Source: Euglena gracilis
Lineage: Eukaryota
NCBI GenBank assembly: GCA_039621445.1
Contig: CP154954.1
Coordinates: 5,131,955 to 5,195,954, forward strand
Direction: 5' to 3'
DNA: 64,000 nt
The number at the start of each line of letters is the position of its first letter. Position 1 is the first letter of the stretch. The position numbers and the translations under genes are program-made. Below are positions 27,494 through 64,000 of the stretch, one piece after another. Under the pieces are notes generated by a model. The model searched no databases and was not told where the DNA came from. It saw only the letters and a program-made list of their open reading frames with translations.

Positions 27494-27824
27494 CATACCA
27501 TTGCTTAACCCCCCCCCCCCCGGGTGACTGACTGGTTGTTTCAGAGTGACTGAATGGTTTTCTGGCCAAGAGCCCCCCAGGGTGGGGGGTAGGCCGAAAA
27601 TGAAAAAGTGGCTGACCGGCTCCAAAGGCACCGGACTTTTTTTTGCAATTTTGAGATTTTTTGGCAATATTGCCTTGCCAACATGAGTGCGTTCAAGGGT
27701 GGCCGATCTCCCCCAGGGGGGTAAAGTTACTGACTGGTTTTTGAGAAAAAGCGACTGGTTTTCTCAGAGAGGAAAGTGACACCCCCCCCCCTCCCCCCAG
27801 CGGGGGTCGCTAAGCAATGGTGTG
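27494..27824. mobile_element. hAT-like MITE, CATACCATTGCTTA family
   Basis: TIR CATACCATTGCTTA / TAAGCAATGGTGTG; 8-bp flanks TTCACGGG / TTCGGGGG (6/8); internal GTGACTGACTGG motifs. Confidence 0.75.
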
Positions 27825-28682
27825 TTCGGGGGGCAATATAATTTAGGAGGTTCATCGTTTGATAATTGTTTTCAAAAAATATTGATATGCACATTTTCGT
27901 TTAATTTCAGGCTTTTTCTCCTTGTTATTTCAATACTTTTTTCCTTGATATTTCCTCAAATTTGTTGTTCCACTGCATGACGTTGATGATTGGTAGAGTT
28001 AATTCATAACTACAAGGTGGGGTGAATTTTGTGCCCCCAACTAAGTCTTAGATTCATTGAAGGATAAAGTTAGCGTTGCAATTCTCAAGTTTGAGTTTTC
28101 TGTGTATGATTCTGGACAGTTATGAAAGCTGCGTATGAATTGCACCAAATGTTTATTCCCACATGGGGCAGGGGATTGGTCAGGATTATTTAGGAGTTAG
28201 GGCAGTTTTGTTTAGTTAGGGCAGGGGATTGGTTAGGTTTAGGGTTCCCCCCATTGGCATTCTTCCAGCCTAAATTCGCAAGATCTGAGATAGGTTGAGC
28301 GCTTGCTATCGGAACAATAAGAACGCGGAACATGTCAGAATGCCAGAGGCAGGCTGCCATTCCAGTACGACCCTGGCCTCGCCTGGCACATCCCACTCCC
28401 TCCAGCCCCACCAGCTCGGACAGCAGTGTTGGGACCCACGGTCCATTCGGCAGGAGCCCTCCGCTCACCCCGGCGGTGCCCACGCCACCCGTGCCTCCGC
28501 GGTGGTCATGCGGCTCCATCGATTGCCACCGGCTCCGTCTTATTATGAAAACCACACAACTGCCAATATTGGAATCGTTGTCCAGCTGGAGAGGTGGAAG
28601 GGGTGCTGAATTTGAGAAATAGAAAGGAGTTGGAAAGCAACCGTTTTTTTGCTTGCGCTTCCGAGAGTATACCGTAAAGCGC

Positions 28683-29907
28683 CAGGGCGGTCCATAAAGG
28701 ACGGGATTTTTTTTATTTTTAGCTAAGGACCGCCCCTTAAGGACCCCCCCCCCCAATACACAGAAACCCGAAAAATTGGACCCGAAAAATTTTCCGGCAC
28801 CTCGGCACGCGGTGTTTTTTTTTGACCCATTTTGGGACCCATATGGGAGGTCCCCCCAAAAACCCCTCAAAACCCCATTTTTTCACACCTTCCAAAAATT
28901 CAACATTTTCTCAAAAATTTAGTTTTGAGATTTTTTTGAAGCAAAAAAGCCATTGAAAACCCAAAAAATTTCCAAGAGAAAAAATGTCAGTAAAATTTCG
29001 ACTGTGCCAAAATTTGGTCCACTTTTTTTTGACCTTCGTTATTTTCCACCCCCTCCTAAAAACTACTAAATTTAACCCTGAAACCTTTGAGATGTTTTTT
29101 TTTGTGAAGAAATGAGGTTTTCCATCAAAAAATCATGTACCGTGGGGGGAACTGGAGGCCGAAAAAATTGAGTGAGAAAAAATTGGCGTACAGAAATCCT
29201 GCCAATTTTTTCCGGCCCTTTTTTGAAAATCCTGCCAATTTTTTACCATTTTCCCCCAATTTTTTGGTTGCCATGGAAGAAATCTTGCCATAACTGGACG
29301 TTTTCACATAAAAAATTCTGCCAATTTTTTCCGGGCCGTTTTCAGGTTTGACACCTAATTTTTTGGCTTCCAATTTTGTCGGTTCTAATTTTATCCAGCC
29401 CCAATTCCCCCCCCCTGATATTTTGGGTTCATTTTTCAAAAAAATTCAGAAATTCTTCAGCCCAAATCCCCGTTTTCCCGAAATTGGTGAAAATACTGCC
29501 CAAAACCCCCCAAACAAACCCCATTTTTTTTCAAACCTTCTAAAATTTCAACATTTCTCAAAATTTTGATTTGAGAGTTTTTGTAAGCAAAAAAAAAATG
29601 CCACTGAAAATCCAAAAAAATTTCAAAGGGAAAAAATGTCAGTAAAATTTGAATGTTCCAAAATTTGGTCCCATTTTTTTTGACCTGCATTTTTTTTGAC
29701 CGCCTTCCTAAAAACTAACATTTTCAGCCCTAAAATTTTGGTGATTTTTTGGGAAAAAATGTGATTTCCATCAAAAAACCATGTATTTTGGGTTCATTTT
29801 TCAAAAAAAATTTTCAAAAATTTTCCCCAGCCAAAATCCCCTTATCCTTATTTTTTGGTTGAAGTGTATGGGGACAGGATTTTTTTTTTTGCTTAAGGAC
29901 CGCCCTG
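28683..29907. mobile_element. hAT-like MITE with perfect 8-bp TSD
   Basis: TIR CAGGGCGGTCC / GGACCGCCCTG; TSD TAAAGCGC at 28675-28682 and 29908-29915; internal duplication of about 300 bp. Confidence 0.92.
29140..29418. mobile_element. TA-target (Tc1/mariner-type) MITE nested in the hAT-like MITE
   Basis: Imperfect TIR CCGTGGGGGGAACTGGAGGC / GCCCCAATTCCCCCCCCCTGA between TA dinucleotides. The second internal repeat of the host shows the empty site (CATGTATTTTGGG at ~29780). Confidence 0.85.
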
Positions 29908-32900
29908 TAAAGCGCTGGGTGGAGGTTTTAAAATTATTTTCAGTTAAATTATTTTTTTCTCAAATAACAAACGTGATTTGGCAATTGACTATTTACAATA
30001 TTGCTTGTGATGACACATACCAACTGTCGGAGAAGCAAGTCAAGGACCGTTTTCAGTACAGATAAACCTTGCACTTTTTTCTTGCACACTGCAAAGTTTT
30101 TTTCCAGCTTTGTTTTTTTTTTCAGGCTCTCAATCAGGCTTTGTTACGACAGTGCAATTGTGTGTGCCAAACGGGTTCAATTGCCGAATTGAATGCCACG
30201 CGACAGATAGCCCCCCTTCTTGAGGAGCCCCCCCATTTCACAGCAGAACCCTCTGACGAGGGCTGCCCCCTTGAATCACAAGACAACCAGGTTTGCTGCT
30301 GTGGCAATCGTGTCCTGAGTACAATATCCCTGGTCGTTGGTGCAAACCATTGGTCGCATGAAGGGGTGGCTGTGGTTATCGTTGGGAAGGATTTGAGCCT
30401 CCTGTCACTGTCCATTTCGCTGCCGTGTTGGCGAGGCAAATTTAGCTTTTCGGGCAGATATTTCGCCTGGTGTTGTTTGTCACAACCTCAGGATTTAAGG
30501 ACCTTCCCCCCCCAGAGGGGGGTCCGCAGGCGAACTGGGAAAAGGTGTTGACTTGACCCCCTTGGGGTGGGGAAGTTCAGTGGAGGTCCAACAGCCAAAA
30601 CCCAACTGATCAGGGGTCAACAGTGGCCCCAAAATGGCATTTTCTTGTGGTTTTTGGTTCTTTAGCTCCAAATTTGGTTGGAAAAGCCAAAACCCAACTG
30701 GGTTGGCATTTTCCAGCCAAATTTGGAGCTAAAGAACCAAAAAACCACAAGAAAGTGCCATTTTGGGGGCCATTTTTGACCCCTTTTTCAATTCAAAGAG
30801 TTCAAAAACCCTTGCCTCACTACCCCGGTGGCGCTGTTCGTTCATTTGTTTTGTTTGAGCGGTTGTAGTTGGTCATTAGTTGTTTTCAATTTCGGCGCCG
30901 TTCCACCCAGCAGGATGAAAAGTGAAGCAACTTGCTGCTGATAGCCAGTCTCCGCTTGCTCCCCATGCCCTCGGCACCCATTCCATGCCTCTGCCAATCG
31001 CGACCCTTTCCTTCGTTCATGACCCGTATTCTTTCAACTGTCCCTGATTTAATGCCAAAACAATTAATTCTTCAGTTCCTTTTCAGAGGAGCCTTGGAGT
31101 TGCACTTGCACTTGCACTCATTGTTTTCCAAAGGATTTTAAAATTTGACGTCTTCCGGCATCCCCTCCAACCAGCAGTTTCTTATTTTGGCTTGCACCCC
31201 CTGGGTCTGCAACAGCTGGAGAATCAGTGCCAGGTTCAGTAATGGCTTAGTGCATTTGACAAAATAATGAGAAATATTTTTGACAAAGCTGTTTTATTGT
31301 GGCCCACCCACCCACGACCTCCACACCCAAGAGAGGTTTGGCCAGCTGTTTTTCATTTCTTATGGCCAGTTGCATGGTTGTTAGGGCATTTGTTCTTTAA
31401 GTGTATGCAGTTAATGGTATGTCGTTATGCACACCATCCCTTTGTAAGCTGTTTAGCGTCTGCTCTTTGCAGTTTTGCTTATTTTTTCTCAAAAAACGAA
31501 TTTGTATTCAATGTATTCAATGTATTATTTTTAGGTTTGCTAGGAAACCAATTTGAAAAAAAAATGATCCCAGGGACTGCACCAACGGACCCCGTGCAAT
31601 ATGCTGACGCCACATCCCAGCATCTTCGTCTCGGCCTGGGAATGGACCGCGAAGTGAAAACCGTTGTGTTATCAGAAATTTTTGTCACCAACCACATTTC
31701 CTGAGCAATGGATAATTTAATGAGGGATACTCAAAACAGATTGGACAATGGATAATTTCCCACCACTGCAACAGCTTTGGGACAACGTTTCCACCTCATT
31801 GTGCACAGTGCATAACCACCAAAAGAGTACCAGGAAAAAAAACGGTGGGCAAGCCCTGTGTCCACAAGCCTGCCCCCAGGGATAAGTAATTGGTTTTTGG
31901 CCCAAATCCTTGAGGGTGGGAGTCAGCAAAAAACACCCTTTCCTTTAAAATGACCCGGAAAAGAATTTGGCCAGTTTCCCTTGGATTATAGTACTTGTAT
32001 CCAGTGACTGGCACCCCTGGCAGGGGGGGGGGGTGACTGACTGGCTTCTTTTTTTTAAAAAAAAAGTGACAGCCTCGTTGTTGGAAGAGAGGAAATAACA
32101 CCCCCATGGCCTTAGCGGCGTAACTCGCATTTAAGGGTTTGTTCATGCTCGCAACGCTTTTCTACAAAGGTCGGCCCCGCATCTGGGAAAACAAAAATCT
32201 GCTTGTTTCACGCCTCGCGATACCCGTTGCAAAAATTGGTCCTCACTATCCTTAGTGGGGGGGGTGTGGGGTTGTGGGGGGGGTTGGGTTTGGGTGGGGG
32301 TTAACAAACAATTTTTCCCTGTTACTGTGTGCATTTTTGGAATCGCTGTGAAATGTGCTTTCTACATCGATGTCACTTGTGGGGTCAAAAAAAAAACCGG
32401 TAGGAATTATTTAAAAGTCCTAAAGTGGCATTTTGACTGGTATTTGGGGGGCAATGGGGGTCCAGGGGAGGGCAGCTGGTCGACCAGGTCATCAGAATGG
32501 GGGGGGGCAGACATGCTTCAGGTCCATGCAAAACTGACATCATCACAAATGTAGCCACAAGAACAACAAAAGGCTGGTGGTTTTTTGGATACAGAGAATA
32601 TTTTATTTAAATGAACACGGTGAAGAAATTGGAAAGCCGATTCCAGACCCAGAAAACCGGAAGATTACAGATACGAAACTTAAGAGTTCTGGACAGAACT
32701 CATTTTTTTTGGAGAACTATTCATGTGCGCATTTGCACACCAACCATTGTGAATTATTACAAACTATTGCATATCGAAGAAATTCCGGTCTCAGGTAGTG
32801 CATCCTGTTCGGTAGGTTATGTCTTGTGACAGAAATTTTGTCTTGTATGTTTCATCTCCTACTGCCAATCGTTTTCATGTCGGTTTACAAACCGTGAAAA

Positions 32901-41964: not shown

Positions 41965-42360
41965 CCCCCCCCCCCCCGTGGTACGACCACCCCTCATTTA
42001 CGACCACCCCCCGGTCACAGGTTGCAGGTCATGGGGGTGTTAATGATCATCCCCCCCCCGGTCGCAGGTTGCAGGTTGCGAATTTTTTTTTGTATTTTTG
42101 AATATGTTCCGTGGATGATGCTGTTGTTTCCAAGTGTCGTTGCTTTTCATGCCCCGTCCCCCCCATTCCCCCCGGGGGATGTCCAGCAAGCAGCTCGTTT
42201 CCAGCCAGCAGCCTTTTTGCCAGCCGGAGGCTGGACCCCTCCGGGGTCCTTAAGAAAACCCCTGTTAACACCACCTTACCTACGACCGCCCCCCTCATTT
42301 ATGACACCCCCCGGTCGCAGGTTGCAAGAACCCGGTTGTACGACAAAGGGGGGGGGCGGG
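41965..42360. mobile_element. TA-target MITE, poly-C TIR family (GGTCGCAGGTTGCA subfamily)
   Basis: TA(C)nGTGGTACGACC ... GGTTGTACGACAAA(G)nCGGG; same internal motifs as 49560-49685. Confidence 0.75.
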
Positions 42361-45300
42361 TTCCTGCAGCCACCCCCCCCCCCCAAATGTTTAGCTCCCT
42401 CAACTTTTCATTTTGGTGGGATTTCAAGATCCTCAGGGGGCGTTACATTTTTAGGGGCGAAGTCAAACTATCTGGGTGACCAACACAAACATTTCTTGTG
42501 AATCCCTATTTTGTGTACGACTTCCTGAATTTCTGGGACGAGGAGGACGTTGGCCTTAAGTAATTGAAAGTAGCAAGTTTGACGGATTCAGCCTGCGCCC
42601 ATCAACCAATCGCCCCCGCCGACACCTAATTGTACAGCTTTCCACGCTTTCCCCTATTTCGGGCCAGGCTCCTTCAGTTGTTCTGAAATGCTGAATTGGT
42701 GAGGATTTTTGTTTGAAGTCCAACCTGCTGGGTCACGTGGGTCATGTGCGGATTTTGCGCTGTCGTAGGTTTTGAACTTGGAAGTGGAAGTGGAATCCAG
42801 ACCGAAGCTCGGTATGGAGTAAACAGAATCACCCCGAAAACTCCGTTTCCGAAGAAGTCTCTCCCCATTCCTTTGGGAGTCGCTGCCCGGAAGCCGTGCG
42901 GCAAGCTGTTACGATTGAGGTGTGGAAGCGGCGCAAGCGACAGGGAATCCTGCTTAGAGGTTGCCTCCATGGGCTGTTGACCACAGCTGCCTTTGCCTTT
43001 GGCCCTTGCTGGCTGTTCTATGGGTTTCCTCAGTTGGAATCAACCCGTGTGTACCACATTTCGTTAAAATGGCCCAAAATGCCCTGAAATGGCCAAATAT
43101 GGCCTACAATGACCTTTTGGCCCCCTATGGGGGGTCCCTGGAATGACCTGAAATGGCCTAAAATGGCCTAAAATGGGAAATATTCTGTTGCACAAAATTT
43201 CTTTTCTGTGGACAATTTGAAGCCATCAGGTGATGATTTCCGTGTATGTGGATGGCAACCGGTGGATTTGGTGGACGATGGTTGAGGAGCCTGCCCCTCT
43301 GACAAACAAACAAACAAACACATTTTATCCCATTTGTGTGAAGCTAAAAAGGTTTGATATCTGACCACTAAATTGCAACCCAGCAGCTAGCAAAAATGGC
43401 CTGACAAGGCCTAAAATGGACTAAAGTGGCCTAAAATGGCCCAAAATGTCTCAAGTTGGCCCGAAGTGCCCCAAAATGCCCCAAAATGAAAATAATTTTG
43501 CGGCTTGAAATTTTTATCATCCATTGAATGTTTTCCCCCACGTGTGGAGCTTCAGACACCTTAAATGACTTTTTGACCTGACCTCCGGAAAATGTGAAAT
43601 GGCAGACAGCTTGGATGCCGCATATGGCAAATGATTGTCTCTTCTGAGATGGTGGGGATCCCCGTGCTCATGGCTTCAGCAAACTTCTCCAGCAAGAACC
43701 TAAAACCGAAGCACCTGGAACATTCCTTAAAATTGAATTGAAAAAATGTTTTTCAGTTTTTTAAATTTTTGAGTTGGAAAAATACAATTTTTGGAATCAG
43801 CGCCATTGCATTTCCTCAAAAAAGGGTTTTGCAACCATCATTTGCCCTTCCAGATAACATTTTGTCCAACATTTTTCCAAATAGAATTTTCTGCAGAAAA
43901 TACCTACCATTCAGAATTCCTCTACGGGTATGGATTAAGGTTTGTTGAGCTTCCTGTGGTTTCGATCCAGTGCCAATGAATTTTGCATGCTTTTTTTGGA
44001 TGCGCATTTCCTTAGGAATAAGCGAATTTTTGCACACACAATGATGCAGTTTTTGGACAAAACAACCCAAAATTATGATTTTCAGAACCCCCACCAATAG
44101 TTTAAAATGGCTTCAAATGGCTTTAAATGGCTTAAAATGGGCAAATTTTTGGGCTTCACTGTAGTTGTTTGCCTGTGTGGCTTTTGGTCCACAATTTTGC
44201 TGCCTGAAGTTAGTTCCCTGCAGATGCCCGCCACTTGGTTTCACAGGGCCAGGCAAGGACAGCTACCGGATCCTACCGGGTCCCACCGGACCCCACCGGA
44301 TCCCTCCTGAGACAAAAAATTAGGGATGACTGTCCTTGCCTGCACAGGGCTTGTTTACGTCCAATATTTTTCACCAAACGCACAGGAGTGCACTGAACCC
44401 CAATGATATTTTCTCTCGGTTTCACCTTTGATGTCGGCCCGTCTACCCAGAGGAAGTTGTGCGTCTTTCCAAACCGTGACCTAATGCCTCCAAGATGAAC
44501 AAACACCAAAAGGTTGGGAAATCAGTTTCGGTGTGAAGCACCACATTTTTTTTCATTCGCGCTTATTCATTTGTCTAAGGACCCCCATCCTTTCCAGGCC
44601 TTATCAGGGGAAATGCAAAGAGCTGTTGACCAAAACCTGGTCAATTAGTGCCTAGACAAGGCCACCAGAGGCAAAGGGTGGCGATCCACCCCCTGGTGGC
44701 GCCTCTCAGAACAGAAACGGGCTCACCCCGACCCCAGGGATGCCATTCCACCAGCTCATGCACCCAATGTCCAGCCTACCCCTCCGCATTTCAGCATTGA
44801 AATAGTCACCGATACCACGGACCGTATTGTTTGCTTGGGGGGCACACCTCTTGCAGTCTGAAAGGTGTGCCAGTGGTGGAATGACTCTCCTTCCCAACCT
44901 GCCATGGGGTTGACCTAGCCCGCGTTGTCTGCCCAAATTTTTTCGCTGTTTTTTTCACGGAAAAGTTCACGGGTACCCGTAAACTTTTGCTCCAAAAATT
45001 TCCGGGAAAATTTCTGGGTTGGTTGCCACCTCGATAAAAACGACCCCTTTGACCCCGTTTTGGACACTTTAGGCTTTTTGCTGTATCAGGAATTTTTGGC
45101 CCTTTTGTGTCGATTCCACTGATGTCCACATTTTTCCCCAAGAATTCTCTTAATTTTGGTGCCGGCTGAAATCAACTGCCACCCCCCCAGCAGAGGCTGT
45201 TTCCGAAACTTTGTGTTTGGCCCCAAAAAGGCCCGATAATTGCTGTACAGCGGTTATCTGGCTAAATGCCTGCAAAACCCGTAAACACCGTTTTCCTCAT

Positions 45301-51835: not shown

Positions 51836-52166
51836 ATACATACATACATACATACACACATACATACATACATACATACATACATACATACATACATACA
51901 TACATACATACATACATACATACATACATACATACATACAAACATACATACATACATACATACATACATACATACATACATACATACATACATACATACA
52001 TACATACATACATACATACATACATACATACATACATACATACATACATACATACATACATACATACATACATACATACATACATACATACATACATACA
52101 TACATACATACATACATACATACATACATGCATGCATGCATACATACATACATACATACATACATA
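51836..52166. repeat. (TACA)n microsatellite
   Basis: Directly visible; source of the HTYI/MYVC ORFs. Confidence 0.97.
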
Positions 52167-52347
52167 CCTCCCCCCCTTGTCGTTGACACGGTGTGTTCGT
52201 TGACACCCCCCCCCCCCGTGTCGACGACACTTTTCTGGAACACTACCTATTGAATCACAGTCACATTGACGTGGCGTATCGTTGACACACCCCCCGTGTC
52301 AACGGCACTCTCCTGGAACATTGGCATGTCAACGACAAGGGGGGGGT
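52167..52347. mobile_element. TA-target MITE, poly-C TIR family
   Basis: TA-CCTCCCCCCCTTGTCGTTGACA ... TGTCAACGACAAGGGGGGGGT-TA, abutting the (TACA)n array. Confidence 0.85.
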
Positions 52348-53720
52348 TACTTGCCCCCCCCCCCCGGGGGTGAGTATGATATCGTTAATCTATGGTGCAA
52401 GACGCGTCGCTGACAGCCTCCCCGCTCCCCGGCGATTCCAGGAGGTGGAAAGGTTGAAGAATTTGGGTGAAAGATTGTCTTCAAATTAGAACAAACCATT
52501 GACCCAAAATCTGGGAAATAAGTTGCATCCCCCCCAACACTGTGGACCCCTCCCCGAGCTCCTTTGGGGCCGCTCTTCATCCCCACACCCATGAGCGGGA
52601 GCACACAGCGACCAGCAGTATTGAGTGACCCAGTAACAAGAAGGTCACGAGGACCTGTCAACATATTTTGATTTAATTCTGTACGGATGGATTTCCTTCC
52701 AAGAGTCGACGTTAACCAACCGTCATATCTACACCTATGAGGCTTCTTTCTTTATTAACTTCTATTTATTTGTTTTATCAGTTTAATTAATTTTTTCATT
52801 AGTTTTATAAATTAATTAATTATTGCTTTTACAAAACCGATTTTTTTGAGAATTCGATATCTATGCTCAAGTATTGTACTGAGAAAAACTACCCCAACAC
52901 GCACATGTGTGGTCCATACATCGCAGCTAACAGCCAAAAATTTGACCAAAGCTGGGGGTGCCAGTGGTGAACTTCGGTTGGGAGTTTTCAGATTCTTTCT
53001 TCTCGTGAAGGTTTTTGGGCTATTTAGCTTATTTGTTACTTCCTCATTTGGCTCCTCCTCCCCCAGTGCATACCCCCCCCAGGTGCTTGGTCCCCCACCC
53101 TTTTTTTCATGCCAACCTGGCCCCATGAATTTAGCCCCCAGCCTCTGCTTGCGATATTGGCCCCCTCTTTTCAGGCTCTTCGGCCTGTTTTGCCCTCTCC
53201 CGACAAAAACACACAATACGTTAATTGACCCCCTCCCAAAAGGCTGCCCCCCCCGGTTTCACTTTCAATCGCGGACACGGGGGAGGTACCTCCTAATTCC
53301 AGGTTTCTGAGGGAAAAGAAGGCTCCCCAGCCAGGTCAAGCCGTGGTCCAATGGGGGGGGGGTCCTCTATGTGTCCTCCCCAGGGAGAGACATCGTTGGG
53401 GGACCCCGCAGCAAGGACCTGTTCAGCTCTCTTGCCACCCAGCCCGTTTGGCGCTCCAGGGCACGGATTCATTTAACGCCTGTTTCGCCCACTTGGGACG
53501 GTAATGCGAATGGGTGGGTGGGTAGGGCCTCTGGAACCCCACTGGGGGGGGGGGTGCGTCAAATTTTTTTTGGCTGTTTTATTACAGTCAGCTTGACTGT
53601 TGGCATGCAATTCCATTCTGCTTTCAGTGGAAGGTGTTTCTTTTCCTCGTGTTGGAATTTGTCCGAAATCAGCCAGGCCTCGGTCCAAAGAAACCTCGGT
53701 TCAAAGAAACAAACGTTTGA

Positions 53721-53983
<263 letters not shown>

Positions 53984-55947
53984 AAGTCATCTGTCTTCTA
54001 ATCGGATATTCATTTAGTGACCTCCCCAGGGGGGGGGGCACTTTTCCTTGGGCCCAAACCCACCCCCCCCCTTTTTTCGAAAATTCATCCCCCCCACAAA
54101 CGACCAACCACCCCACCCACCCAAAAACCCTGCCAAATCGGCCGAAAAATGATTAAGAAATTTGCAGCCAAAAATCTGACCCATGGCGCTTCCCACCCCC
54201 TCCCGAGGGGGTCCAGAGGCCCCAACCCACCCACCCACCCAACCTTGAAAACCTACCGACCCTCCCCCCGGAGGTCACACAGGTACCAAGTGAATCTATG
54301 CTTCTGGTGCCAGTCCATAGTCACGCACATGAAGCATAATTCAGAGGGAAATAATTTCGATGTGTGAGGCAAGGACAAGCGCAACCATCGCAGCTGGTGG
54401 AGCAATCACAAATCACAGGAAATTGGCAAGGATGTGTGTGAAGCGCCGGAGGAATCCCGTGCCAAAAGCAAATATATGACAGACGTGGTGCGCAAGAATG
54501 CAATCCCCCACTTCTTGCGAAACATGATGAGAAGAATTAACTGGGAATGCAAAGGTTGGTAACCCCCTTTGCCCATTATGATGCATTATTGTGCTGCAGT
54601 TTATTTTTTGTAAATTTGCGTACCCTACCACTGAAGGCAGCAGTCATAAAAGCGCACGCTCCCTTTGGGATTGAAAATGTAAAAATCCATAAAAACTAGG
54701 CATTGAAACAACACAATATGGAACTCTGTACTGATGTATGCAATGTGGTTGATCATGCCATTGATTCAGTTCACAGGTTTGAGAAAACTGGAGAGTTTGC
54801 GAGGACTGTGGCTCTCAATTCTGAGTAGCTCCATTAAACTGAGAATTGTGAAAAATAATCACCACCTTCTGCCACCCTTGCCTCAGATACAGCAATCTTC
54901 TCTAAATATGCCGCTGACAGGTGCCAAATGCCACAGCCCAAAAGGGAGGACCCAATAATTTTGTTTCCCTGGGACAATTTCAAAGCTGTTGCAGAAGAGT
55001 CACAGATACGTTGCAGAGTTGCAGAATGTCCTGCCTTGGTGCCAACCATTCTACAACATCAACTCGTATCTCTCTGCTCATTGGCAAAACTATCAAATTG
55101 ATTGGCTATCCCCCCGGCCACCTGGCTAGCGCAAGCTTAGGTGGCACCTTCCCAGGCATGAAAGCAGCCCCGGATTCACCCAGTGACCCCACCCGGAGGG
55201 ACACTTTTCCCAGGGCCCAACCCCCACCCACAAATTATCACAAAAAAGTCGAAAAAATCGAAAAAAATTGTCCAAAAAAAAAAACGATGTTTTTTTTGGC
55301 GTCCCGGACGCGGAAAACCTGTTTTTTTTAGGCGAAAATGAGCGTTTTTCGACCTCCCAGCACCCCGTTTTTGGCCCGAAACCCATGGAGTTTGGGTCAA
55401 AAGTGGTCAAAAAAAGTCGGCAAAATCGAGGGAAAAAAATGTCCGAAACAATGTTTTTTGGCCTCCCGCCCACCCACCCACCCACGACACCCTACCCCGG
55501 GGGGGGGGGCAAAATCGCCCACCCACCCACCCAAAACCCAGCCAAACCCCCTCCCATGCCAGGGCTGTGTGGGAAATCTCGAAGCCTGACAGGTGGCCCC
55601 ACCTGCGATCACGGTGGCTGACAGCCTTGTTATAGCTTATGGCGGGGAGAGGGCAAGTTTTCATAATTTGTGTAATTTTCATTTTCTTTTGCAGAATCCA
55701 AATCATGAAAATTGCATTTTTTTTTGTGTGTCGGTCTCACTTTCTTTGGGGGGAAGCTAAGCTGCAACGTTTTTCTTCCCAAAGGTTCGCCACCCCCCCG
55801 TCGGGCCGCTGGCCACCAGCAGAGGCTCCACTCTCAACCCACCTTAAAGCCCCGAAGGAAGCACCCCACCGGCAAACCATTGTGCGTTGGCAAGCCCCAG
55901 CGAGTTGCCCCCTCCTCCCCGCCCCTGCCCCCCCCCCCAGCGCCCGC

Positions 55948-58900
55948 ATGTCCCACCCGTACTACGCCGCCCCGGCGGCCCCGGCCCCCGCGCCGTACTC
56001 CACCGTGTACGCGCCGCAGGCCGCTGCCCACGGCCAGGGCTAGGGCTGGATGGCAGCCCCTCCGCGTCCTGGACGGGAGGTGCAAACGGGTTTTTTTTGT
56101 TTTTTTTTGTTGGCTTGATGTTTTCTGCTTTTTTTTTGAAAATTGAAAAATAAAATAGAATAAAAAATAAATTAAAAGAATTGCCAAAAATCTGACGAAT
56201 TTTTTTGGGGCAAATTCTCTGCAAAAATTTTGCCCCCATTATCCACATTTTTTTTATTCCTGCTTTTGCATCGCGTTTTTTCCGGGGGCCCATGTTGCGT
56301 CCCCTCCGGTGGTGGTGGTGAGCGGTCCTTCAGCCCACCGCCCACCACTGTGCCAGTGGGGGTGCCCCCCCCCCCCGGGCCCTGCCCCCAGCGCCCCGTA
56401 CGCCCCGGGGGGCTCGTCGTCCCTCGCCGCCATCGACAAGGAGATGCAGTCCCTCCGCTCCAACCTCGACATCCTCGTCCGCAAGCGGGAGGCCCTCGCG
56501 CAGCCCGGCCCCAGCGGGGGCTCCAGATGATCGCTTGGGCACTGGTCGACCCCTTGGCCGGGGGAATTGGTGGGCTGGTTGTTGTTGATGCGGGGAAAGA
56601 AAGCTAAAAGTCACACAAAAATAATTAAAGAATTTTTGTTTTTTTTGTTTTTTTCTGCTCTTTTTTTTTCTCTGCCCTTTTTTATCTTTTTTTTTTTTGG
56701 GGCCCCATTTTCCACTCTTTTTTTTGTCCCACCGCACACTGCCAGTGGGGGGCCCCCCCCTGCCCCCAGCGCCCGGGACGCCCCTCGTCTCGCGGCCATC
56801 CAAGGAGATGCAGTCCCTCCGCTCCAACCTCGACATCCTCGCGCACGGGAGGCCTCGCGCAGCCCCCCAGCGGATCGTCATTTCGTCTTGTTTTTGGCCT
56901 GGTTGTTGTGGAAAAAAGGGACTACCAAAGTCACACACGGGCAAAGTGAACAAGGGGGAGGAAGGGAGAACATGGGGGAAAAGCGCTGTTGCAGCAGCTG
57001 TTTTTTTTTGTCTTGGTGTGTTTTGGTTCTTTTTCATGGAAAAGAAATTTCAAACTCTGCGGCGGATCTCACATTTGGCATAGTTGGCTTGTTCGCAAAA
57101 GAAAATGCGCAAAGGAACCCAAATTTTTTCCTGTGCAACGCAGTGTCCTCCCCAGTACCTCCCGCCCCCCCAAGCCCAATGAACAATAAGGTGACAATCT
57201 AGACCGTCCAAACGGGGAGTGTTCATTGGGCTTGGGGTACGGTTTCTGTGTAGATAACAGGGAATTTCTTAAGGACCCCCGGGGGGGGGGGGGCCAGCCT
57301 CCGGCTGGGAAAAAGGGGGCTGGGTGGATTTGAGCTGCTGGCTGGACCCCCCCCCCCGGGGGGGTGGGGGGGGGGCCCAGCCGGCCGAAGGCCGGCCCAG
57401 CCGGCCGCAGGCCGACCAGCCAACTGGGCTGTCCAGCTCACTTATCCCTGCATTTTTTCCCCTCATCACAGCCCCTCCATCGCAGCCCCCCAGCCTTGAT
57501 CTAGCTCCACCCATCAAAATGTCGAAAATGGCAAAAATGTGTTAGAAAATTTTGTTTTTCCTCGACCCAGCCCAGCCCAGCCTGCTCCAGCCCCGGACCC
57601 CGGCCTCCGGCCGGGCTGGACCCGACTTTATTTCACTCGACCCCGGGGGGGGGGCTCCCAGCCCGAATTTGGGCTGCTGGCTGGATTTGAGCTGCTGGCT
57701 GGCTGGACCCCCCCCCCCGGGGGGTAGGGTACCCTCCGGCTTAAGAAATTCCCTGGTAGATAAGGTATATGGTGACAATCTAGACGGTCCGAACACCCCC
57801 TGTTCATTGGGCAAGGGTGTTCATTAGGCATGGGGGGGGGAGGTATGTACATTGTCCGTCTTGCTCGTCTCTCCCCAATCAAGCTCCACCACTGTAGTTT
57901 AACCGTCCTGGCACCCCCCACATATTCATTTACCGCCTACAATAACCCCGCAGAGTTTGACAGAAGGAGGCTGGTGGAGGAGGGGGTGCATCCGCCCTTA
58001 TTATTGAGCGTTACATTATCATCATCATTATCATTAAGGAATTGTTGCAGCATCCCCCCAGCACCGGGGCCCAAAAACGGTCATTCTCCAGGAAAATGGC
58101 TTGGGTCGGGCAGGGGCCAGGATATATAAGTGAGCATTGGTTTTGCGCAAGTCGGGGAGTCCAGACCACTGGACCAGGGGGGCCCCGGGTCCAGATTGAC
58201 CCCGGTGGGGGAAGAAAAATTTTTTTTCAGCCGACTCTACCCCACCCTCGTGGTCCAGCCAGCTAGCCAGCAGTTTTTTTCCCCAGCCAGCAGCTCCGAG
58301 CCAGGCTGTGGACTAGAGCAATAAACTTTTCGAGTAAAGCAGGCTGGACCGAATTTTTTCTTTCGGCCCAAAGGGGTCAAAAATCAAAACGGCCGAAGAT
58401 AGCATTCTTAAGTGGTTTTGGCGATTTCACCTCAAAAATTTGGCTGAAAATACTCCAACCGGTTTGGGCTTTTCCCCGCCTGTTTCCAGGTGCCACTCAT
58501 GTCCAGCCTGGCAGCCAGTGACACCCCCCCCCCCCCCCCCCTAAACCCCCGACCCCTAGGGGGGAGGGGGAGGGATTCAACCAGCACCTTTTTCCAGCCG
58601 GCCTCCCCAAAAGTCAAAATTTTCCTTCCGGTGCTTGTGCCGACAACTTTTGGCTTTTTAGAAGAATTCCGCCCAAAAAGTGCCCAAAGCCACACGTTTA
58701 GGGGCAAAATTATTTGGCCCGCAAAGATCAGTCACGCAGACAGTGCCACTATACAGGGTTTGTGTAGAGAGTGGTCCGACCCCCCCCCACCCCCCCTTGT
58801 ATCGAACCCTGCCAGGTTTGAACCCCCCCATTGCGGGTCGTGTGTGTTGGGATTTCAAAAAAAAAGTGGGTGGATTTGGGCCATACCATTGCTTAAGGTC

Positions 58901-61900
58901 CGTCCCCCCCGGGGGGACTGACTGGGTTTTTTTTGCAGTGAGTGACTGGTTTTTGCACATATGGCATAAAGTGGAGCCCCACAGTCGAGTGTGGGGTACT
59001 GTGGGGGGTAAGTGTCGGGGGGGGGGAGTGTGCGGGGTAAGTGTGGGGTGACAGCGGGGGGGAGTGTGGGGGGGGGTGTGGGGTGACAGTAGGGGGGAGT
59101 GTGGGGGGTAAGTGTGGGGGGGAGTGTGGGGGGTAAGTGTGGGGTGACATGGGGTGGGAGTGTGGGGGGTAAGTGTGGGGTGACAGTGGGGGGGGAGTCA
59201 ATCTGGTCTAAATTCTGTCCACGCCTTTCGATCCTAGTGTACTTTATACCGGCTGTCACTACTGCACCAGATCACACACCCACGGCCGAAACTCCTCCCA
59301 CATGAGAGCGCACCTGCCCCTGAAGGGTTTTGTTCACTTGCCGCTATTTTCTATCTTCGTTTTCGGAAGATAAGGATTTTGATAATTTGGATCTGGGGGG
59401 GGTCCGGGGGGAGCATGCCCCCCCCCGGGACGAGGCCGAAGGCCAAGTGAGTCAAAAAATGACACTCAAACGTTGGGCCACATGCAGGAATCTGGCAATT
59501 TCCTTTTCACACAAAAGGGGAGTGTGGGGGGTAAGTGTGGGGTGACAGTGGGGGGGAGTGTGTGGGGTGACAGTGGGGGTGTGGGGTATCCCACAGTACT
59601 GCGGGGTACTGTGGGGGCTCCACTTTATGCCATCTCTCGGTTTTTGGCTCCAGACCCCCCCCACCCGGGGTGGTGGGTTGGCCCTGGGGGGGTCACTTCC
59701 CTCTTTCAACCCCCCCCCCCCAAGGCCCCAGGGGGTCACTCTGCCTCAGCCAAAAATGGCCTAAAATCGACGAGTGTTGGCCAACCTGTCCCAAACATTT
59801 TTTCTTACAACTTCCCCGCCCCCCCCCCCCCCCGGGAGGGGGGTGCGTAAGCAAGCATGATTTGGGTCCCGGAAAAGTTGCCCCGGGGGTTACGAAGTGA
59901 GTCTATGACCCCCTCCCCCCCACGAAGTGCCCTCCCTCTTGGGTGGAGCGGGGCTGGCCTCCGAGGCGGAGCGCAGCCGCCTCATCAGCAAGCGCCAGGC
60001 GGAGGAGCTGCAGAAGCTGGAGCACGAAGGCCAGAAGATGGTGGAGGCCCCGCCGGCGCCTGGGTCCGGATATTTGTGCGCAGATGCACGTGACGAACGA
60101 GCAGGTACATGCACGTGTGCAGCGTAGAAATACGTCACCATCCCCTCACACAGTTGAACAAAAACCAACCCCAGAACCTTGTGATTTACCACGGATAACA
60201 ACAGAATAGCCCGAAACCACCCAATACAACAAACCACAGATACCGACGGATATCTTCGGACAGCGACAGAGAAGATTTTGACCCCCAACTACAGATAAGT
60301 CCCTGCATATAGAACGGTACAAAGAAGCATGCGTGCTTCTTTGTCATGCCATGCATCGTATGTCATGCATGTCATGCCATGCATGTCATGCATGCTTTGT
60401 ATGTCATGCATGTCATGTCATGCATGGCATGCATGCTTTGTTTTTTTTGTGCTGTTTTTGCTTTTCTGCCTGCAACAATTTGCACACCCACACTCAGACC
60501 GGCGGAAAATCACGCAACGTTTTCTGCGCCCCGCCGTTGCAGGCGCCGGGGGGATTGGGATCCGGGAGCGGCTGCAACGGGAGCGGGAACTGTGGAAGGA
60601 GCGGGCGGAGCGGGAGGCCCAGGAAGCCCGGCTGCGCTCCCACCGGGGCCGTCCCTGTGGCCGCCCCTGTGGTGCACGCAGGCCACGGGCAAGCACACAT
60701 GGTCCCCGCCAGAGGCTTTTTTTCAGGACCGGGGGGGGGGTCGGACCCACCCCCCGTCCCCGGGCGGGGGGGGGGGGGTCTCGGGGGGCCAACTTATAGG
60801 GGGTCAATTTTGGGGTCCAAAAAATTCTGTTTTCGGCGCTTTTTGAAATTCGATTTTCGTGCTTTTCAGAATTCGATTTTCGGCGCAAAGCGCTGAAAAT
60901 AAAAAAAACCCGCCTCCGGCGGGATACCCACTGGGCCCGACCCCCCCCCCCCACCCGGGGATGGGACCCACCCACCAACCCCCCCCAGGCCACAAAACTC
61001 AGGAAAATATCTGGTCCCTGCCACCCAAGAATTAGTCCCACAAAATCTGTACGCTGCCCCCTGTACTCGTGTTCTTGTCCTCTTGGGATCTTTGTTTTTG
61101 AAAGCACTTTCGTGATTCGACACATAAAACGGTCTACACTCCAAACTGGAGGTTGCCATTCGGGCTTGCATTTGCTTGGTTGTGATGTTGGGATGCTACA
61201 ACCTCCGTTTGTTCTCGCTGTCTTGTCACGGGACAGTTTCTGACGGGGGCTGCCATGTAACACAATTATGCAAACAATGTTTTTTTGATCTTTTTGATCT
61301 TCAACTTTTTATTTTATGTTTTGATTCTTCTGAAACACCGCTTTGGCCAGGTTCGCGCTGGTTGCCGAGGCGGACAGCCCTCCCGTGTGTGACCGTGCAG
61401 GAGCAGGAGCGGGACCTGGAGCGGCTCGCTCGGGAGCGCGCCGCGGACCGACACCGGGAGGAGGTCTCCCGCTATGCCCCCCGGGAGCCGCCCGCCCGCC
61501 GCGGCTACGAGGCCCCTCCTGCGCGGGCAGCGGCCTGCGTCCGTGTGGTTTTTCCTTTTTTTTTGGAAGAGAACACAACTCTTTTTTTTAGTGTTTTTTT
61601 TTAGTGTTTTTTTTAGTGTTTTTTTAAGTGTTTTTTTTTTAGTTTTTTTAGTGTTTTTTTTAGTGTTTTTTTTAGTGTTTTTTTAGTACATCCGTTTTGT
61701 TAAAATTCGCTTCGTTTTGATGACACTGAGCGGGGGATTTTGAAACAAAAATTATGCAAACTTTTGGTTGGTTTTGTTTTTAACAGATCCCACCCGGAGT
61801 GTGGAGAACTTTATGGGAGGTTGGTGGAGTTTTTTGTTGTGTGTTTTTTGTTTTTTTTTTGGAAGTTTTTTTTTTTTTAAGTGTTTTTTTGTTTTTTATT

Positions 61901-63932
61901 TTTTTTTTATGTTTTGTTTTTTTTGTTTTTTTTTTTTTTTTTTGTGTTTTTTGTGTTTTTTTTAGTACTTCGTGTTTGTTAAAATTTTTTTGTGGCTTTG
62001 TTTTTTTTTTGTTTTTTTATTTTTTTTTATTCGTTTTTTTTTTTTTTATTTTTTTTTTTTTTTGTACGTTTCCCTCGCTGGTCTAAAGAGACGCTCCGTT
62101 GGATTTTCCCCTGGGGTTTTTTGTTGCAGAAGATCCTGCCTGTGTGGGTGTGATGGTACTAATACAGCGATGCCCCAGGTGTGCAATAGCCCACGTGCTG
62201 TAGTGCACCGGAATGCAATGCACTTTGTGGAGCTGCAGCTGCAAGGATGCCAGTGTCAGGAAATGGTCATTTTTTTCATTTTTTTTGCTTTCTCCCAATC
62301 CACTAATCCACTGGAAGTTGAATGTGCTGCGGGTGCTGAAGAACAATGTGCTGTGGGGTGCTGCCTGGCTTGGACCGCATTCGCCCTCACGGCTTGGAGT
62401 ATGAGCGGAGTCATGCTTGTGCCAACAGCCAAACCATCGGTGGTTTCCTCCTTCCCTGTGCTTAGGAAATGGTTCCCGATACCATCTGCTGTTTTGTAAC
62501 TCCGGATCAGAGGCCGGGAACGGCAGGGGCTTTCAGCCAGCAGTTCCCAGCCCAATTGCGGACTCGGACTGCGAGACTTGGGCTTTCCCCCCTTTTTTTG
62601 GCAGATTTTTTTCCCCCAGCCGGTCCAACCAGGCAGCCAGCCCCTGGGGGGGGGGGGTTCCAGCCAGCGCCTCTTTTCTTTTTACATCCAGACAACTTTT
62701 TTCAGCCAGCAGGCTGGATTGTGCGGAGCTGTCACATCACAGGCAGGCATCGGAGAGCCTGACATTTTCCTGAGTCTTGAAAAGTCTTTGGGCATACCCC
62801 CCCTTTAGATCCATTTTTGGCCACCTCCAAGCAACCTTCCCTGGATTGGCGTGAAAGTTGGATAAAACAATGTCTCTGATTTCTGAAGGACCCAGAGGGG
62901 GTAGGCGACCCCAGAAAATGGTCCCTTTGGGGTCTGTTGACTCGTCATGTTCGAAATTCCATTTGTAAGAATCGTACCCCCCCCCCCCTATTCCAACGAC
63001 CCCGTGTCTGACGACCCGGCGCGAAGCGCCGGCCTGAAAACTTTGCCGCCCAAAATCCTCCAAAGAATGCCCTCTGGAGCACTTTTTGGGCAAAAAAGTG
63101 TCATAAATGCAAAAAAAATGCAAAGCGCTGAAAGGAAAAAAATGACTATTTTTGGGTCCCCCCCGTCCACATATTTTTGGATTCCAAAACCATTTTGTCC
63201 AACGGCCGACCCCCCTAGTCGGAGGACCCTACGTCCAGGGACCCTCCGGTCATTACCGGTCGGTAGACACGCTGGGGAGAGTGGCTGAAGTTGCAATCCA
63301 GTTGTGTGCCGGCCGACGTGTCAGGTGAGAAGTTCTCTGGGGGGGTTAGGTACGAGGAGTGGGTGGTGCGCCGTGGTTGCTCTCCAGTCCGGCCCGCTCG
63401 CTCACGCACGGCCCCGTCGGGGAGGAGCGGCCACGGCTGCCGGACCGCGACCGCGACTATGACGATCGCCCCCGGGAGTTTGACTACGGGAAGGGGAAGG
63501 GGAAGGGCGATGCCGGGGCCGCCTTTCACGAAGATATGGGCTCTCCACCGTCGTTGTTGGGCTGGAGTGGAGTGCTGTGTCGTGGCGTGTCGTGTTGCGT
63601 TGCATCATATCGTGCAGTGTCGTGTCGACGCGGAGTGGTGTTTCGTGTCGTGGTGCCGTGTCCCGTCACGTCGTTTCGTGTTGTGTCGTGCCGTGTTGTG
63701 TCATGTCGTGTAGTGTAATGTCGGGCGTTGTGTCGCAGTGTGTTGTGGTGTGGTGTGGTGTGGTGTGGTGTGTCGTGCTGTGCCTTCATCAGGTTGAGAA
63801 TTATGAGTGTCTTTCTTCCCATGCTAGCCACAAAGAGAAAGGCTACCCCCTGGAGGCAAAGGCAAAGGCAAGGGCGACTTCGGCAGTCGTGGGGAGTACC
63901 GCAGCCGACCGGAATACGACAGCCAGGGGTGA
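55948..63932 (+). CDS. Multi-exon gene D: Pro/Ala/Tyr-rich N-terminus, E/R-rich coiled coil, DR and KG repeats; exons 55948-56031, 56390-56497, 59963-60046, 60557-60637, 61395-61520, 63410-63508, 63858-63920/63932; may continue past the window
   Basis: Spliced peptide MSHPYYAAPAAPAPAPYSTVYAPQAAAH|SAPYAPGGSSSLAAIDKEMQSLRSNLDILVRKREAL|EAERSRLISKRQAEELQKLEHEGQKMVE|GIRERLQRERELWKERAEREAQEARLR|VQEQERDLERLARER...YEAPP|GPVGEERPRLPDRDRDYDDRPREFDYGKGKGKG|KGKGKGDFGSRGEYRSRPEYD. Strong GC3 bias; every intron has complementary ends and none is GT-AG. Confidence 0.8.
56032..56389 (+). other. Nonconventional intron (gene D intron 1)
   Basis: GGC-CAGGGC ... GCCCTG-CCCCC; in-frame TAG inside, so it must be removed. 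Confidence 0.88.
56727..56872 (+). pseudogene. Degenerate tandem copy of gene D exon 2 with flanks
   Basis: AAGGAGATGCAGTCCCTCCGCTCCAACCTCGACATCCTC is repeated from ~56438-56476, with many small deletions around it. Confidence 0.85.
57158..57843. mobile_element. TA-target MITE, poly-C TIR family, host of a nested hAT-like MITE
   Basis: TA-CCTCCCGCCCCCC..CCAATGAACA ... TGTTCATTAGGCATGGGGGGGGGAGG-TA; internal repeat GGTGACAATCTAGAC x2. Confidence 0.8.
57258..57755. mobile_element. hAT-like MITE with perfect 16-bp TIR and 8-bp TSD
   Basis: TIR CAGGGAATTTCTTAAG / CTTAAGAAATTCCCTG; TSD GTAGATAA at 57250-57257 and 57756-57763. Confidence 0.95.
58882..59859. mobile_element. hAT-like MITE, CATACCATTGCTTA family
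   Basis: CATACCATTGCTTA / TAAGCAAGCATG; flanks ATTTGGGC / ATTTGGGT (7/8); internal GTGTGGGG arrays. Confidence 0.8.
60047..60556 (+). other. Nonconventional intron (gene D intron 3)
   Basis: GCC-CCGCCGGCGCCTG ... CAGGCGCCGGGG-GGATT, 10-bp perfect stem; joins MVE|GIR. Confidence 0.85.
60638..61394 (+). other. Nonconventional intron (gene D intron 4)
   Basis: TCC-CACCGGGGCCGTCC ... GGACAGCCCTCCCGTGTG-TGACC; joins RLR|VQE. Confidence 0.7.
60710..61013. mobile_element. hAT-like MITE (CAG...CTG) with 8-bp TSD
   Basis: CAGAGGCTTTT / AAAATATCTG (imperfect); flanks GTCCCCGC / GTCCCTGC (7/8). Confidence 0.7.
61550..62065. repeat. T-rich low-complexity tract including (T)nAGTG repeats
   Basis: Directly visible. 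Confidence 0.9.
62977..63350. mobile_element. Probable TA-target MITE, poly-C TIR family
   Basis: TA(C)nTATTCCAACGACC resembles the end of 39357-39974; right end GGGGGGGTTAGG-TA is degenerate. Confidence 0.5.
63509..63857 (+). other. Nonconventional intron (gene D intron 6)
   Basis: CCGGGGCCGCCTTTC ... GAAAGGCTACCCCCTGG complementary ends; splits the KG repeat; boundary uncertain by 1 nt; contains a GTGTC repeat. Confidence 0.75.
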
Positions 63933-64000
63933 CAGCTGCCAATGGATACCCCCGCCCCACCTCTCTTTTGGGCAGCCTCCTTGGTCCATTTGGGCACCAC

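Follow-up and report, generated by a model that had tools for sequence, protein, structure and literature searches.

We analysed a stretch of 64,000 nucleotides of the Euglena gracilis genome (GenBank assembly GCA_039621445.1, contig CP154954.1, forward strand 5,131,955 to 5,195,954; hereafter the window, numbered from its first letter), with attention to the 498-bp element at 57258-57755. This element is a MITE (a miniature transposable element with inverted repeats), a nonautonomous DNA transposon, and lies within intron 2 of a DBC1-domain gene. In the reading that we favour, and hold to be rather probable, it is a hAT-like MITE, and its family can be read by euglenid nonconventional splicing and excised as the element plus eight flanking bases. 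One member of this family, at 6461-6629, forms the body of an intron in coding sequence. The coordinates of the main features are collected in the table.

The preliminary description of this DNA had given 57258-57755 CAG...CTG ends and an 8-bp target-site duplication, and both were confirmed. The terminal inverted repeat is a perfect 16 bp, with CAGGGAATTTCTTAAG at 57258-57273 and its exact reverse complement at 57740-57755, and the exact copies of GTAGATAA on the two sides form a direct repeat that stops at exactly 8 bases, with no extension either way. The interior carries C/G runs and CCAGCC modules. Four sequencing runs labelled as the same species, three of RNA and one of DNA, were aligned to 52200-64000, and the empty site was indeed present as DNA: three contigs of the DNA run (X1; depth 395) join 57249 to 57756, skipping 506 = 498 + 8 bases, and 8 bases at this joint can be assigned to either side. 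The sequence around the element is a repeat, and the genome therefore has copies of it without the MITE; the joint is independent proof that 57258-57755 is inserted. The same joint was also found in seven RNA reads (1, 3 and 3 in the three RNA runs), which are no evidence of splicing because the joint exists as DNA. The DNA word depth was 1.28 million in the bin 57322-57715, compared with some 40-90 for unique bins, which indicates only roughly that the modules of the element are very abundant. When the element was folded as RNA, the 16-bp terminal stem closed the minimum-energy structure (z = -4.49, a value reached by 0 of 100 shuffles). At the C/G homopolymer palindromes that the repeats contain (57293, 57375 and 60778), numerous RNA reads end in long stretches of G, a sign that the length of these homopolymers may differ from copy to copy of the abundant repeats.

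The splicing code of Euglena, 5'-N3CDG-/-CH'GN5-6|R, has been defined experimentally (PMC12501133; the literature is cited here from the accessible parts of each paper). CAG and CTG are required, the spacer on the 5' side must be 3 nt long, that on the 3' side is 5 nt long or, at lower efficiency, 6 nt, and the next exon begins with a purine; furthermore, nonconventional introns, whether natural or synthetic, are spliced when they are knocked into an exon (PMC12501133). Cuts placed 3 nt upstream of CAG and 5 nt downstream of CTG thus remove the element with one 8-bp duplication and restore the exon. This arithmetic, 3 + 5 = 8, had been put forward in the preliminary description; it is sound and coincides with the published code. 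The same description had also taken the 3/5 asymmetry as the mark of a splicing system matched to hAT elements, which was not supported: with two identical copies the mRNA is the same for any split between 0/8 and 8/0, so that the duplication accounts for the sum of 8 alone and leaves the asymmetry unexplained.

In the mechanism that we propose, a transposase supplied in trans would have recognised the CAGGG... inverted ends of a nonautonomous cut-and-paste MITE of hAT-like type and, cutting the target with an 8-bp stagger, inserted it into an older repeat inside intron 2 of the DBC1-domain gene. The anatomy of the family would be just what nonconventional splicing reads, namely outermost CAG and CTG paired through the inverted repeat, and two 8-bp copies of the target. 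Splicing would remove the element and 8 flanking bases, equal to one duplication, and the exon would return to its state before the insertion; the 6461-6629 copy would have landed in coding sequence and be seen in that removed state. The match between 8 and 3 + 5 would then be causal rather than coincidental. The element at 57258-57755 itself is an ordinary-looking hAT-like MITE at a harmless site, with no effect on the gene there.

The copy in coding sequence corresponds to T10, the last intron of the gene for the transcript-derived protein P0004. T10 consists of the 169-nt element 6461-6629 plus 8 flanking nucleotides and lies 10 codons upstream of the stop. The element has an inverted repeat of 12/14, and its flanks, GAGGGGTC (6453-6460) and GAGGGGGC (6630-6637), agree at 7/8 positions and directly abut CAG and CTG. 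The 59 codons concerned are missing from P0004, and all 10 placements of the intron with one residue mismatch to this protein remove 177 = 169 + 8 nt; the junctions follow N3-CDG...CH'G-N5-6|R. T10 was recovered both by an unbiased scan for CAG...CTG structures and by the intron map. Its 5' end links it to the family: among the 2264 CAG-starting 16-mers of the window, only six match this end at 12/16 or better, namely the end itself, the opposite (3') end of the T10 element, two solo termini, 13490 (14/16) and 24366 (13/16), the end at 29907 (12/16) and a similar end at 20894. In addition, a module of the interior rich in C/G runs shares 81% identity with the MITE at 57258-57755 over 68 nt (E 1e-12). 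Within the window, one copy forms a whole intron (6461-6629), and further copies, free or intronic, and single termini lie at 57258, 42264, 28683, 13490 and 24366. We infer that 6458-6634 is an exonic copy of the family, removed from the message as element plus 8 by splicing that would also operate in this allele.

Three clean MITEs, at 57258, 28683 and 44250, have CAG/CTG as their outermost bases, CAGG...CCTG ends and exact 8-bp duplications. An exact 8-bp duplication combined with an inverted repeat of at least 10/12 was found 3 times in the window versus a mean of 0.2 in 30 dinucleotide shuffles (one element in 6 of the 30, never more), and when duplication lengths of 6-10 bp were scanned, the three elements appeared at 8 only. 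Structures with CAG...CTG ends, flanks of at least 7/8 and an inverted repeat of at least 10/12 numbered 4 in the window versus 3 in total over 100 shuffles. As for the five elements listed in the preliminary description, 57258-57755 and 28683-29907 are clean, whereas 60710-61013, 58882-59859 and 27494-27824 look weak by sequence, with flanks of 6-7/8 or poor arms. The class of 60710-61013 (flanks 7/8, inverted ends 7/12) has 15 cases in the window versus about 3 per shuffle, and because of the latter figure this element is not individually significant. The 5' end of 58882-59859 has a CATACCATTGCTTAA end in common with 27494-27824. Second ends were searched for the termini at 13490, 24366, 42264 and 20894, and none was found.

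Two further observations concern nested or related elements. Six DNA contigs of other copies of 58882-59859 join 58898/58899 to 59639, skipping 58899-59638, so that in this copy the central 740 bp were inserted; this insert has an inverted repeat of its own (ATGGCATAAAGTGGAGCCCC...), and the elements are thus nested. At 20936-21802 lies an 865-bp element with (C)AGGGATCCTCACA inverted ends, readable either with a 7-bp duplication (CGTATAG, giving CAGGG ends) or with a 9-bp one (GCGTATAGC, giving AGGG ends); it might belong to the CAGGG group as its fourth member.

For the intron census, three transcript-derived proteins were mapped to the window, giving three plus-strand genes with 27 placed introns. 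Eight of these are capable of GT/GC-AG splicing: S1, S2, S4, S6 and S7 of the Sec14/CRAL-TRIO gene (GT-AG possible) and T4, T8 and T9 of the P0004 gene (GT-AG). The other 19 are nonconventional, including all seven complete introns of the DBC1-domain gene (I1-I7). The code N3-CDG...CH'G-N5-6|R fits 10 of the 19, strictly with CAG...CTG in eight: I1, S9 (14522-14827, GCC-CAG...CTG-CCCAC|A), T2, T5, T6, T7 and T10 have 3 + 5 spacers, and I2 has 3 + 6. I5 fits as CGG...CTG, its border being taken from tblastn segment ends, and I6 as CGG...CCG. The form NNN-CAG...CTG-NNNNN, ascribed earlier to the local nonconventional introns at large, therefore holds for 7 of the 19, plus one with a 6-nt 3' spacer, and not for the other 11. 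The fitting placements of T2 and T6 are one of 2 and one of 5 protein-equivalent placements, respectively; the 2/6 and 0/8 splits given by nucleotide-level sliding were dropped, and the protein-equivalent placements include 3/5. Introns that do not fit the code contain strong terminal helices of 10 bp at 6/10 (60047-60559), 9 bp at 4/8 (14936-16113), 8 bp at 3/7 (104-616) and 7 bp at 3/3 (14081-14464), which hint at further splice-competent geometries or at other source elements.

Several observations weigh against the reading that we favour. Nine of the 19 nonconventional introns (I3, I4, I7, S3, S5, S8, S10, T1 and T3) do not fit the code, several of them with terminal helices at other offsets whose sums are 6, 10, 12, 16 and 20, and the spacers of I2 add up to 9, not 8. 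The element at 57258-57755 was also considered as an intron of its own and rejected: it sits within the intron 56498-59962, and the skip seen in RNA is also DNA. Read as an intron, TAA-CAG...CTG-GTAGA followed by T, it fails the purine rule and reaches a purine only with a 6-nt 3' spacer, in which case 9 flanking bases would go. The pyrimidine|purine consensus that a review describes at both junctions (PMC11282704) speaks for the reading, since two copies of one target would yield it; among the three free MITEs, none has pyrimidine|purine at duplication positions 5|6, and for two the next exon would start with a pyrimidine. T10 has difficulties as well. The junction residue (6636) is D in the transcript versus G or V in the window, and the source of the transcript may be another allele or a paralogue, which perhaps lacks the insertion. 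Furthermore, the T10 element is in frame and stop-free, so that read-through is possible, and its minimum-energy fold leaves the ends unpaired (z = -1.53, with 12 of 200 shuffles as good).

The junction statistics point the same way. Direct repeats have been reported at 84.4% of introns (PMC12501133). For the code-fitting introns of the window, the flanking 8-mers agree at 6 (I1), 4 (I2), 1 (I5), 3 (I6), 2 (S9), 0 (T2), 2 (T5), 5 (T6), 5 (T7) and 7 (T10) of 8 positions. Pooled over these 10 introns, this gives 35/80 versus a permutation null of 27.4 +/- 3.8 (P = 0.035), which is weak, and a register shift of +1 gives 34/80, the other shifts giving 21-29. Identity in the junction register was 36/80 (45%) for code-fitting, 29/64 (45%) for conventional and 28/72 (39%) for other nonconventional introns. 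Since the code-fitting introns are no higher than the conventional ones, the pooled signal, which is that of old introns, is unconvincing. The junction-repeat evidence sits in the tail, in T10 and I1; the terminal six bases of I1 are those of the 28683 element.

In one rival reading, the MITEs are ordinary hAT-like elements unrelated to nonconventional introns, their hAT traits generic, the sum 3 + 5 = 8 an accident, and T10 a polymorphic exonic insertion or an old look-alike intron. The equal junction-repeat identity of code-fitting and conventional introns, the nine introns that ignore the geometry, the free MITEs without the purine/pyrimidine context of real junctions and the tolerated 6-nt 3' spacer (PMC12501133; intron I2) all speak for such a coincidence. 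However, four independent features of T10 agree, namely its terminal family, its interior module, flanks of 7/8 in exact register and the loss of element plus 8, and 100 shuffles gave only 3 CAG...CTG structures of that kind. I1, T2 and T6 likewise carry CAGGG(C/A) MITE-like ends, and a recently gained, strain-specific gapC intron of E. agilis has eight-nucleotide junction repeats (PMC4770533). We thus regard coincidence as unlikely. The authors of that report proposed break repair for the eight-nucleotide repeat (PMC4770533), which leads to a second rival, a different or reverse origin: introns would arise from double-strand-break repair or from reinsertion of intron circles, and the non-genic MITE-like copies would descend from introns. 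Excised nonconventional introns are indeed circles with full-length ends (PMC11282704, PMC12501133), and such a circle would carry the 3 + 5 flanking bases. On the other hand, the perfect 16-bp repeat, the exact 8-bp duplication and the exact DNA empty site of 57258-57755 form the signature of DNA transposition, MITE copies lie in untranscribed-looking AT-rich DNA and inside other repeats, and the 8-nt junction scar that a reinserted circle would leave within the element is not evident. A reverse or different origin of this kind is quite improbable.

The assignment of the family to hAT was weighed in the same manner. The 8-bp target-site duplication, a hAT trait, is exact at 57258, 28683 and 44250, with a single copy at the empty site. 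The terminal motif of hAT elements is 5'-YARNG, and the CAGGG ends at 57258, 28683, 6461, 42264, 13490 and 24366 agree with it; 44250 ends CAGGC and deviates at position 5. The hAT target consensus is nTnnnnAn, which is found in GTAGATAA and not in TAAAGCGC, CACAGGGC or GAGGGGTC, four cases being a weak test. CAG ends are common among hAT elements everywhere, so the trinucleotide match by itself is weak, a further point against our reading. So is the search for a transposase: a Pfam scan of 20 long non-low-complexity open reading frames, out of 277 stop-to-stop frames of at least 90 aa, gave 0 families, and the hAT class is therefore drawn from the 8-bp duplication and the CAGGG ends. Rfam at gathering thresholds and a tRNA scan of the window gave 0 matches each. 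Another superfamily with 8-bp duplications (Merlin, P or a Mutator-like group) might be responsible, since Merlin families with such duplications are documented in E. gracilis (PMC8101967), the 20 scanned frames include no hAT transposase, one in four duplications agrees with the target consensus, one element ends CAGGC, and 20936-21802 can be read with a 7- or 9-bp duplication. Against this, every Merlin family described there begins 5'-GG right after an 8-9-bp duplication (PMC8101967), whereas the ends in the window start with CA, as CAGG right after the duplication, and CAGGG agrees with the hAT motif given above. To a superfamily other than hAT we therefore give little weight.

Removal of the element with exactly one duplication would make exonic insertions phenotypically silent. 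On this basis, euglenid nonconventional splicing as a whole might be an RNA-level excision matched to a single group of DNA transposons, the hAT-like CAGGG MITEs, and these MITE families, still recognisable, might be the ongoing source of the majority intron class of Euglena; exonic insertions would be silent and at once introns, and the cutting enzyme may be related to the machinery that recognises transposon ends. We put this wider claim forward only tentatively and consider it rather doubtful. Nonconventional introns make up 71.8% of the introns of E. agilis (PMC12501133). The preliminary description had proposed that MITEs seed scarless introns and had suggested looking for an exonic copy that is spliced. 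T10 answers to this as a family member whose element plus 8 is gone from the transcript-derived protein, with the reservation that its junction residue differs and another allele or paralogue is possible; the published gapC case also fits. On the other side, the MITE at 57258-57755 is intronic, 9 of the 19 introns are off-code, and pooled junction identity does not exceed that of conventional introns. The broader idea is thus a sharpened form of a published hypothesis that gains one local example (T10) and one published example (gapC), and it is not proven.

Table. Features of the window. Positions are those of the 64,000-nucleotide stretch; a dot marks features without strand.
Feature	Position	Strand	Description	Basis
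MITE	57258-57755	.	Nonautonomous DNA transposon, 498 bp; no coding capacity seen	
Left target-site duplication of this MITE	57250-57257	.	GTAGATAA	Sequence; empty-site joint in DNA contigs
Right target-site duplication of this MITE	57756-57763	.	GTAGATAA	Sequence; empty-site joint in DNA contigs
Intron T10	6458-6634	+	Nonconventional, last of P0004 gene; GTC-CAGGGCGTCGCTGA...TCCGCGACACCCTG-GAGGG|G	
MITE-like element	28683-29907	.	1225 bp; inverted repeat CAGGGCGGTCC(A/T)TAAG; exact 8-bp duplication TAAAGCGC at 28675-28682 and 29908-29915	Duplication scan
MITE-like element	44250-44342	.	93 bp; 13-bp repeat CAGGCAAGGACAG; exact 8-bp duplication CACAGGGC at 44242-44249 and 44343-44350; AT-rich noncoding surroundings; missing from the preliminary description	Duplication scan
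Weak element	60710-61013	.	Flanks 7/8, inverted repeat 7/12; within nonconventional intron I4 (60642-61386), no intron itself	Preliminary description
Weak element	58882-59859	.	CAT...ATG ends, flanks 7/8, poor 3' arm; within intron I2	Preliminary description
Weak element	27494-27824	.	Ends CATACCATTGCTTAAC / CACACCATTGCTTAGC, inverted repeat 14/16, flanks 6/8	Preliminary description
Partial diverged family copy	42158-42264	-	Family of 57258-57755; terminus CAGGGGTTTTCTTAAGGACC	
Solo MITE-type terminus	13471-13490	-	CAGGGCATTGCTGAAGGACC; within conventional intron S7	
Solo MITE-type terminus	24347-24366	-	CAGGGCGTTGCTTAAAGACC	
DBC1-domain gene	55940/55948-63924	+	First 8 exons, runs on past the window; exons 55940/55948-56031, 56390-56497, 59963-60046, 60560-60641, 61387-61520, 62373-62402, 63422-63511, 63855-63924	Protein P0001 mapped
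Intron I1	56032-56389	+	GGC-CAGGGC...GCCCTG-CCCCC|A; flanks CCCACGGC/CCCCCAGC, 6/8	
Intron I2	56498-59962	+	3465 nt; GCG-CAG...CTG-GCCTCC|G; 6-nt 3' spacer; hosts 57258-57755 and 58882-59859	
P0004 gene	77-6664	+	EukProt EG_transcript_14727; 11 exon blocks in window, 10 introns	
Sec14/CRAL-TRIO gene	9096-16158	+	P0003 (EukProt EG_transcript_14713); 11 exons	

The exon borders of the DBC1-domain gene were taken from the transcript-derived protein and the RNA depth bins. The peptide of 56390-56527 matches EukProt EG_transcript_763 (P0001; 1195 aa, Pfam PF14443) at 100%, and RNA depth is non-zero in every exon-holding bin and near zero in unique intron bins, which supports the model. Exon peptides of the other two genes matched EG_transcript_14713 and EG_transcript_14727, and on the strength of these three matches the window reads as nuclear DNA of Euglena gracilis type. 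RNA reads have loose ends at 55940 and 63924. In 7 RNA reads (run X22), CAATTTTTTTTC, which we take to resemble the 3' end of the euglenid spliced leader, precedes 55940, just after a C-rich tract and AG; 55940 would thus mark an acceptor for trans-splicing, 8 nt upstream of the gene's ATG.

Further observations concern the same gene and its neighbours. Intron 2 contains, at 56625-57083, a degenerate second copy of exon 2 (peptide ...KEMQSLRSNLDIL...), where RNA depth is nearly zero (bin 56534-56927); this is probably a pseudo-exon from local duplication. I3 (60047-60559) encloses a possible conventional GT...AG intron at 60106-60542 with a pyrimidine tract, which also keeps the frame and could be an alternative or 'both-code' arrangement. 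At 61470-61480 the window encodes APREPP versus APPQPP in the EukProt transcript, and the single-nucleotide polymorphisms 60028 A>G and 61430 T>C are common to RNA and DNA runs; these differences, with that at 6636, are allelic or strain variants. Right after the stop of the P0004 gene, 6700-7960 is 66.7% G+C and open in several frames, in which proline/alanine/arginine codon repeats predominate. Long microsatellites, (ATAC)n followed by (GA)n, (TA)n and (CA)n runs, lie at 51842-52160 and 53700-53990.

Where euglenid nonconventional introns come from, and how they are removed, has been an open question for some thirty years. A MITE-like origin, mentioned in the preliminary description as already suggested in general terms, is indeed in print: it dates from 2014 (PMC3935182) and was taken up again in 2024 (PMC11282704, including the legend to Fig. 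3D) and 2025 (PMC12501133), in each case without a named element. As of PMC3935182, in its accessible part, no transposable element had been identified in euglenids, and the accessible parts of the euglenid intron papers (Milanowski et al. 2014, 2016; Nomura et al. 2025) name no transposon family, superfamily or duplication length. In the literature covered, which excluded the supplements and the 2021 J Mol Biol circular-RNA paper, nothing was found that links hAT elements or an 8-bp duplication to the N3/N5 geometry, so that the hAT-like family and the 8-bp arithmetic, though not the MITE origin, were not found in print. The window thus supplies specific candidate elements, those of the family with CAGGG ends and 8-bp duplications. 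The agreement of spacer sum and duplication length gives a quantitative account of why their insertion would do no harm, and one member of the family is captured in coding sequence as an intron.

Among known systems, the maize element Ds is close: Giroux et al. are said to have described, in 1994, Ds acting as an intron in maize. hAT MITEs and Ds share with the present elements the 8-bp duplication, short CAGGG inverted repeats, nonautonomy and removability from transcripts. Ds, however, uses the spliceosome and cryptic GT/AG sites, whereas removal here would be hairpin-guided, nonconventional and exact, and no hAT transposase was found among the 20 open reading frames scanned. A second parallel is given by introner elements, reportedly described by Huff et al. 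in 2016. In introners of Micromonas, Aureococcus and dinoflagellates, a DNA transposon and one duplication are likewise removed as an intron and the exon is restored, with inverted repeats and duplications at the junctions (PMC11282704); these introners are spliceosomal, with GT/AG partly co-opted from a 3-5-nt duplication, whereas here there is no GT/AG, the CAG:CTG stem sets the cut positions, and the duplication has a length of 8 bp. If our reading is true, intron gain of the introner type would have a counterpart that works without the spliceosome. Merlin elements, likewise DNA transposons with 8-bp duplications, occur in E. gracilis as well, but they have GG ends and the copies described encode a DDE_Tnp_IS1595 transposase (PMC8101967), whereas the window elements have CAGG ends and are noncoding. 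With the published nonconventional introns of euglenids, finally, our introns share CAG at +4..+6, CTG at -8..-6, inverted-repeat pairing and short junction repeats (PMC3935182, PMC4770533, PMC12501133). Unlike in those reports, free copies with exact 8-bp duplications occur here in one window with a copy of the same terminal family that is an intron, and the sum of the spacers is linked to the length of the duplication.

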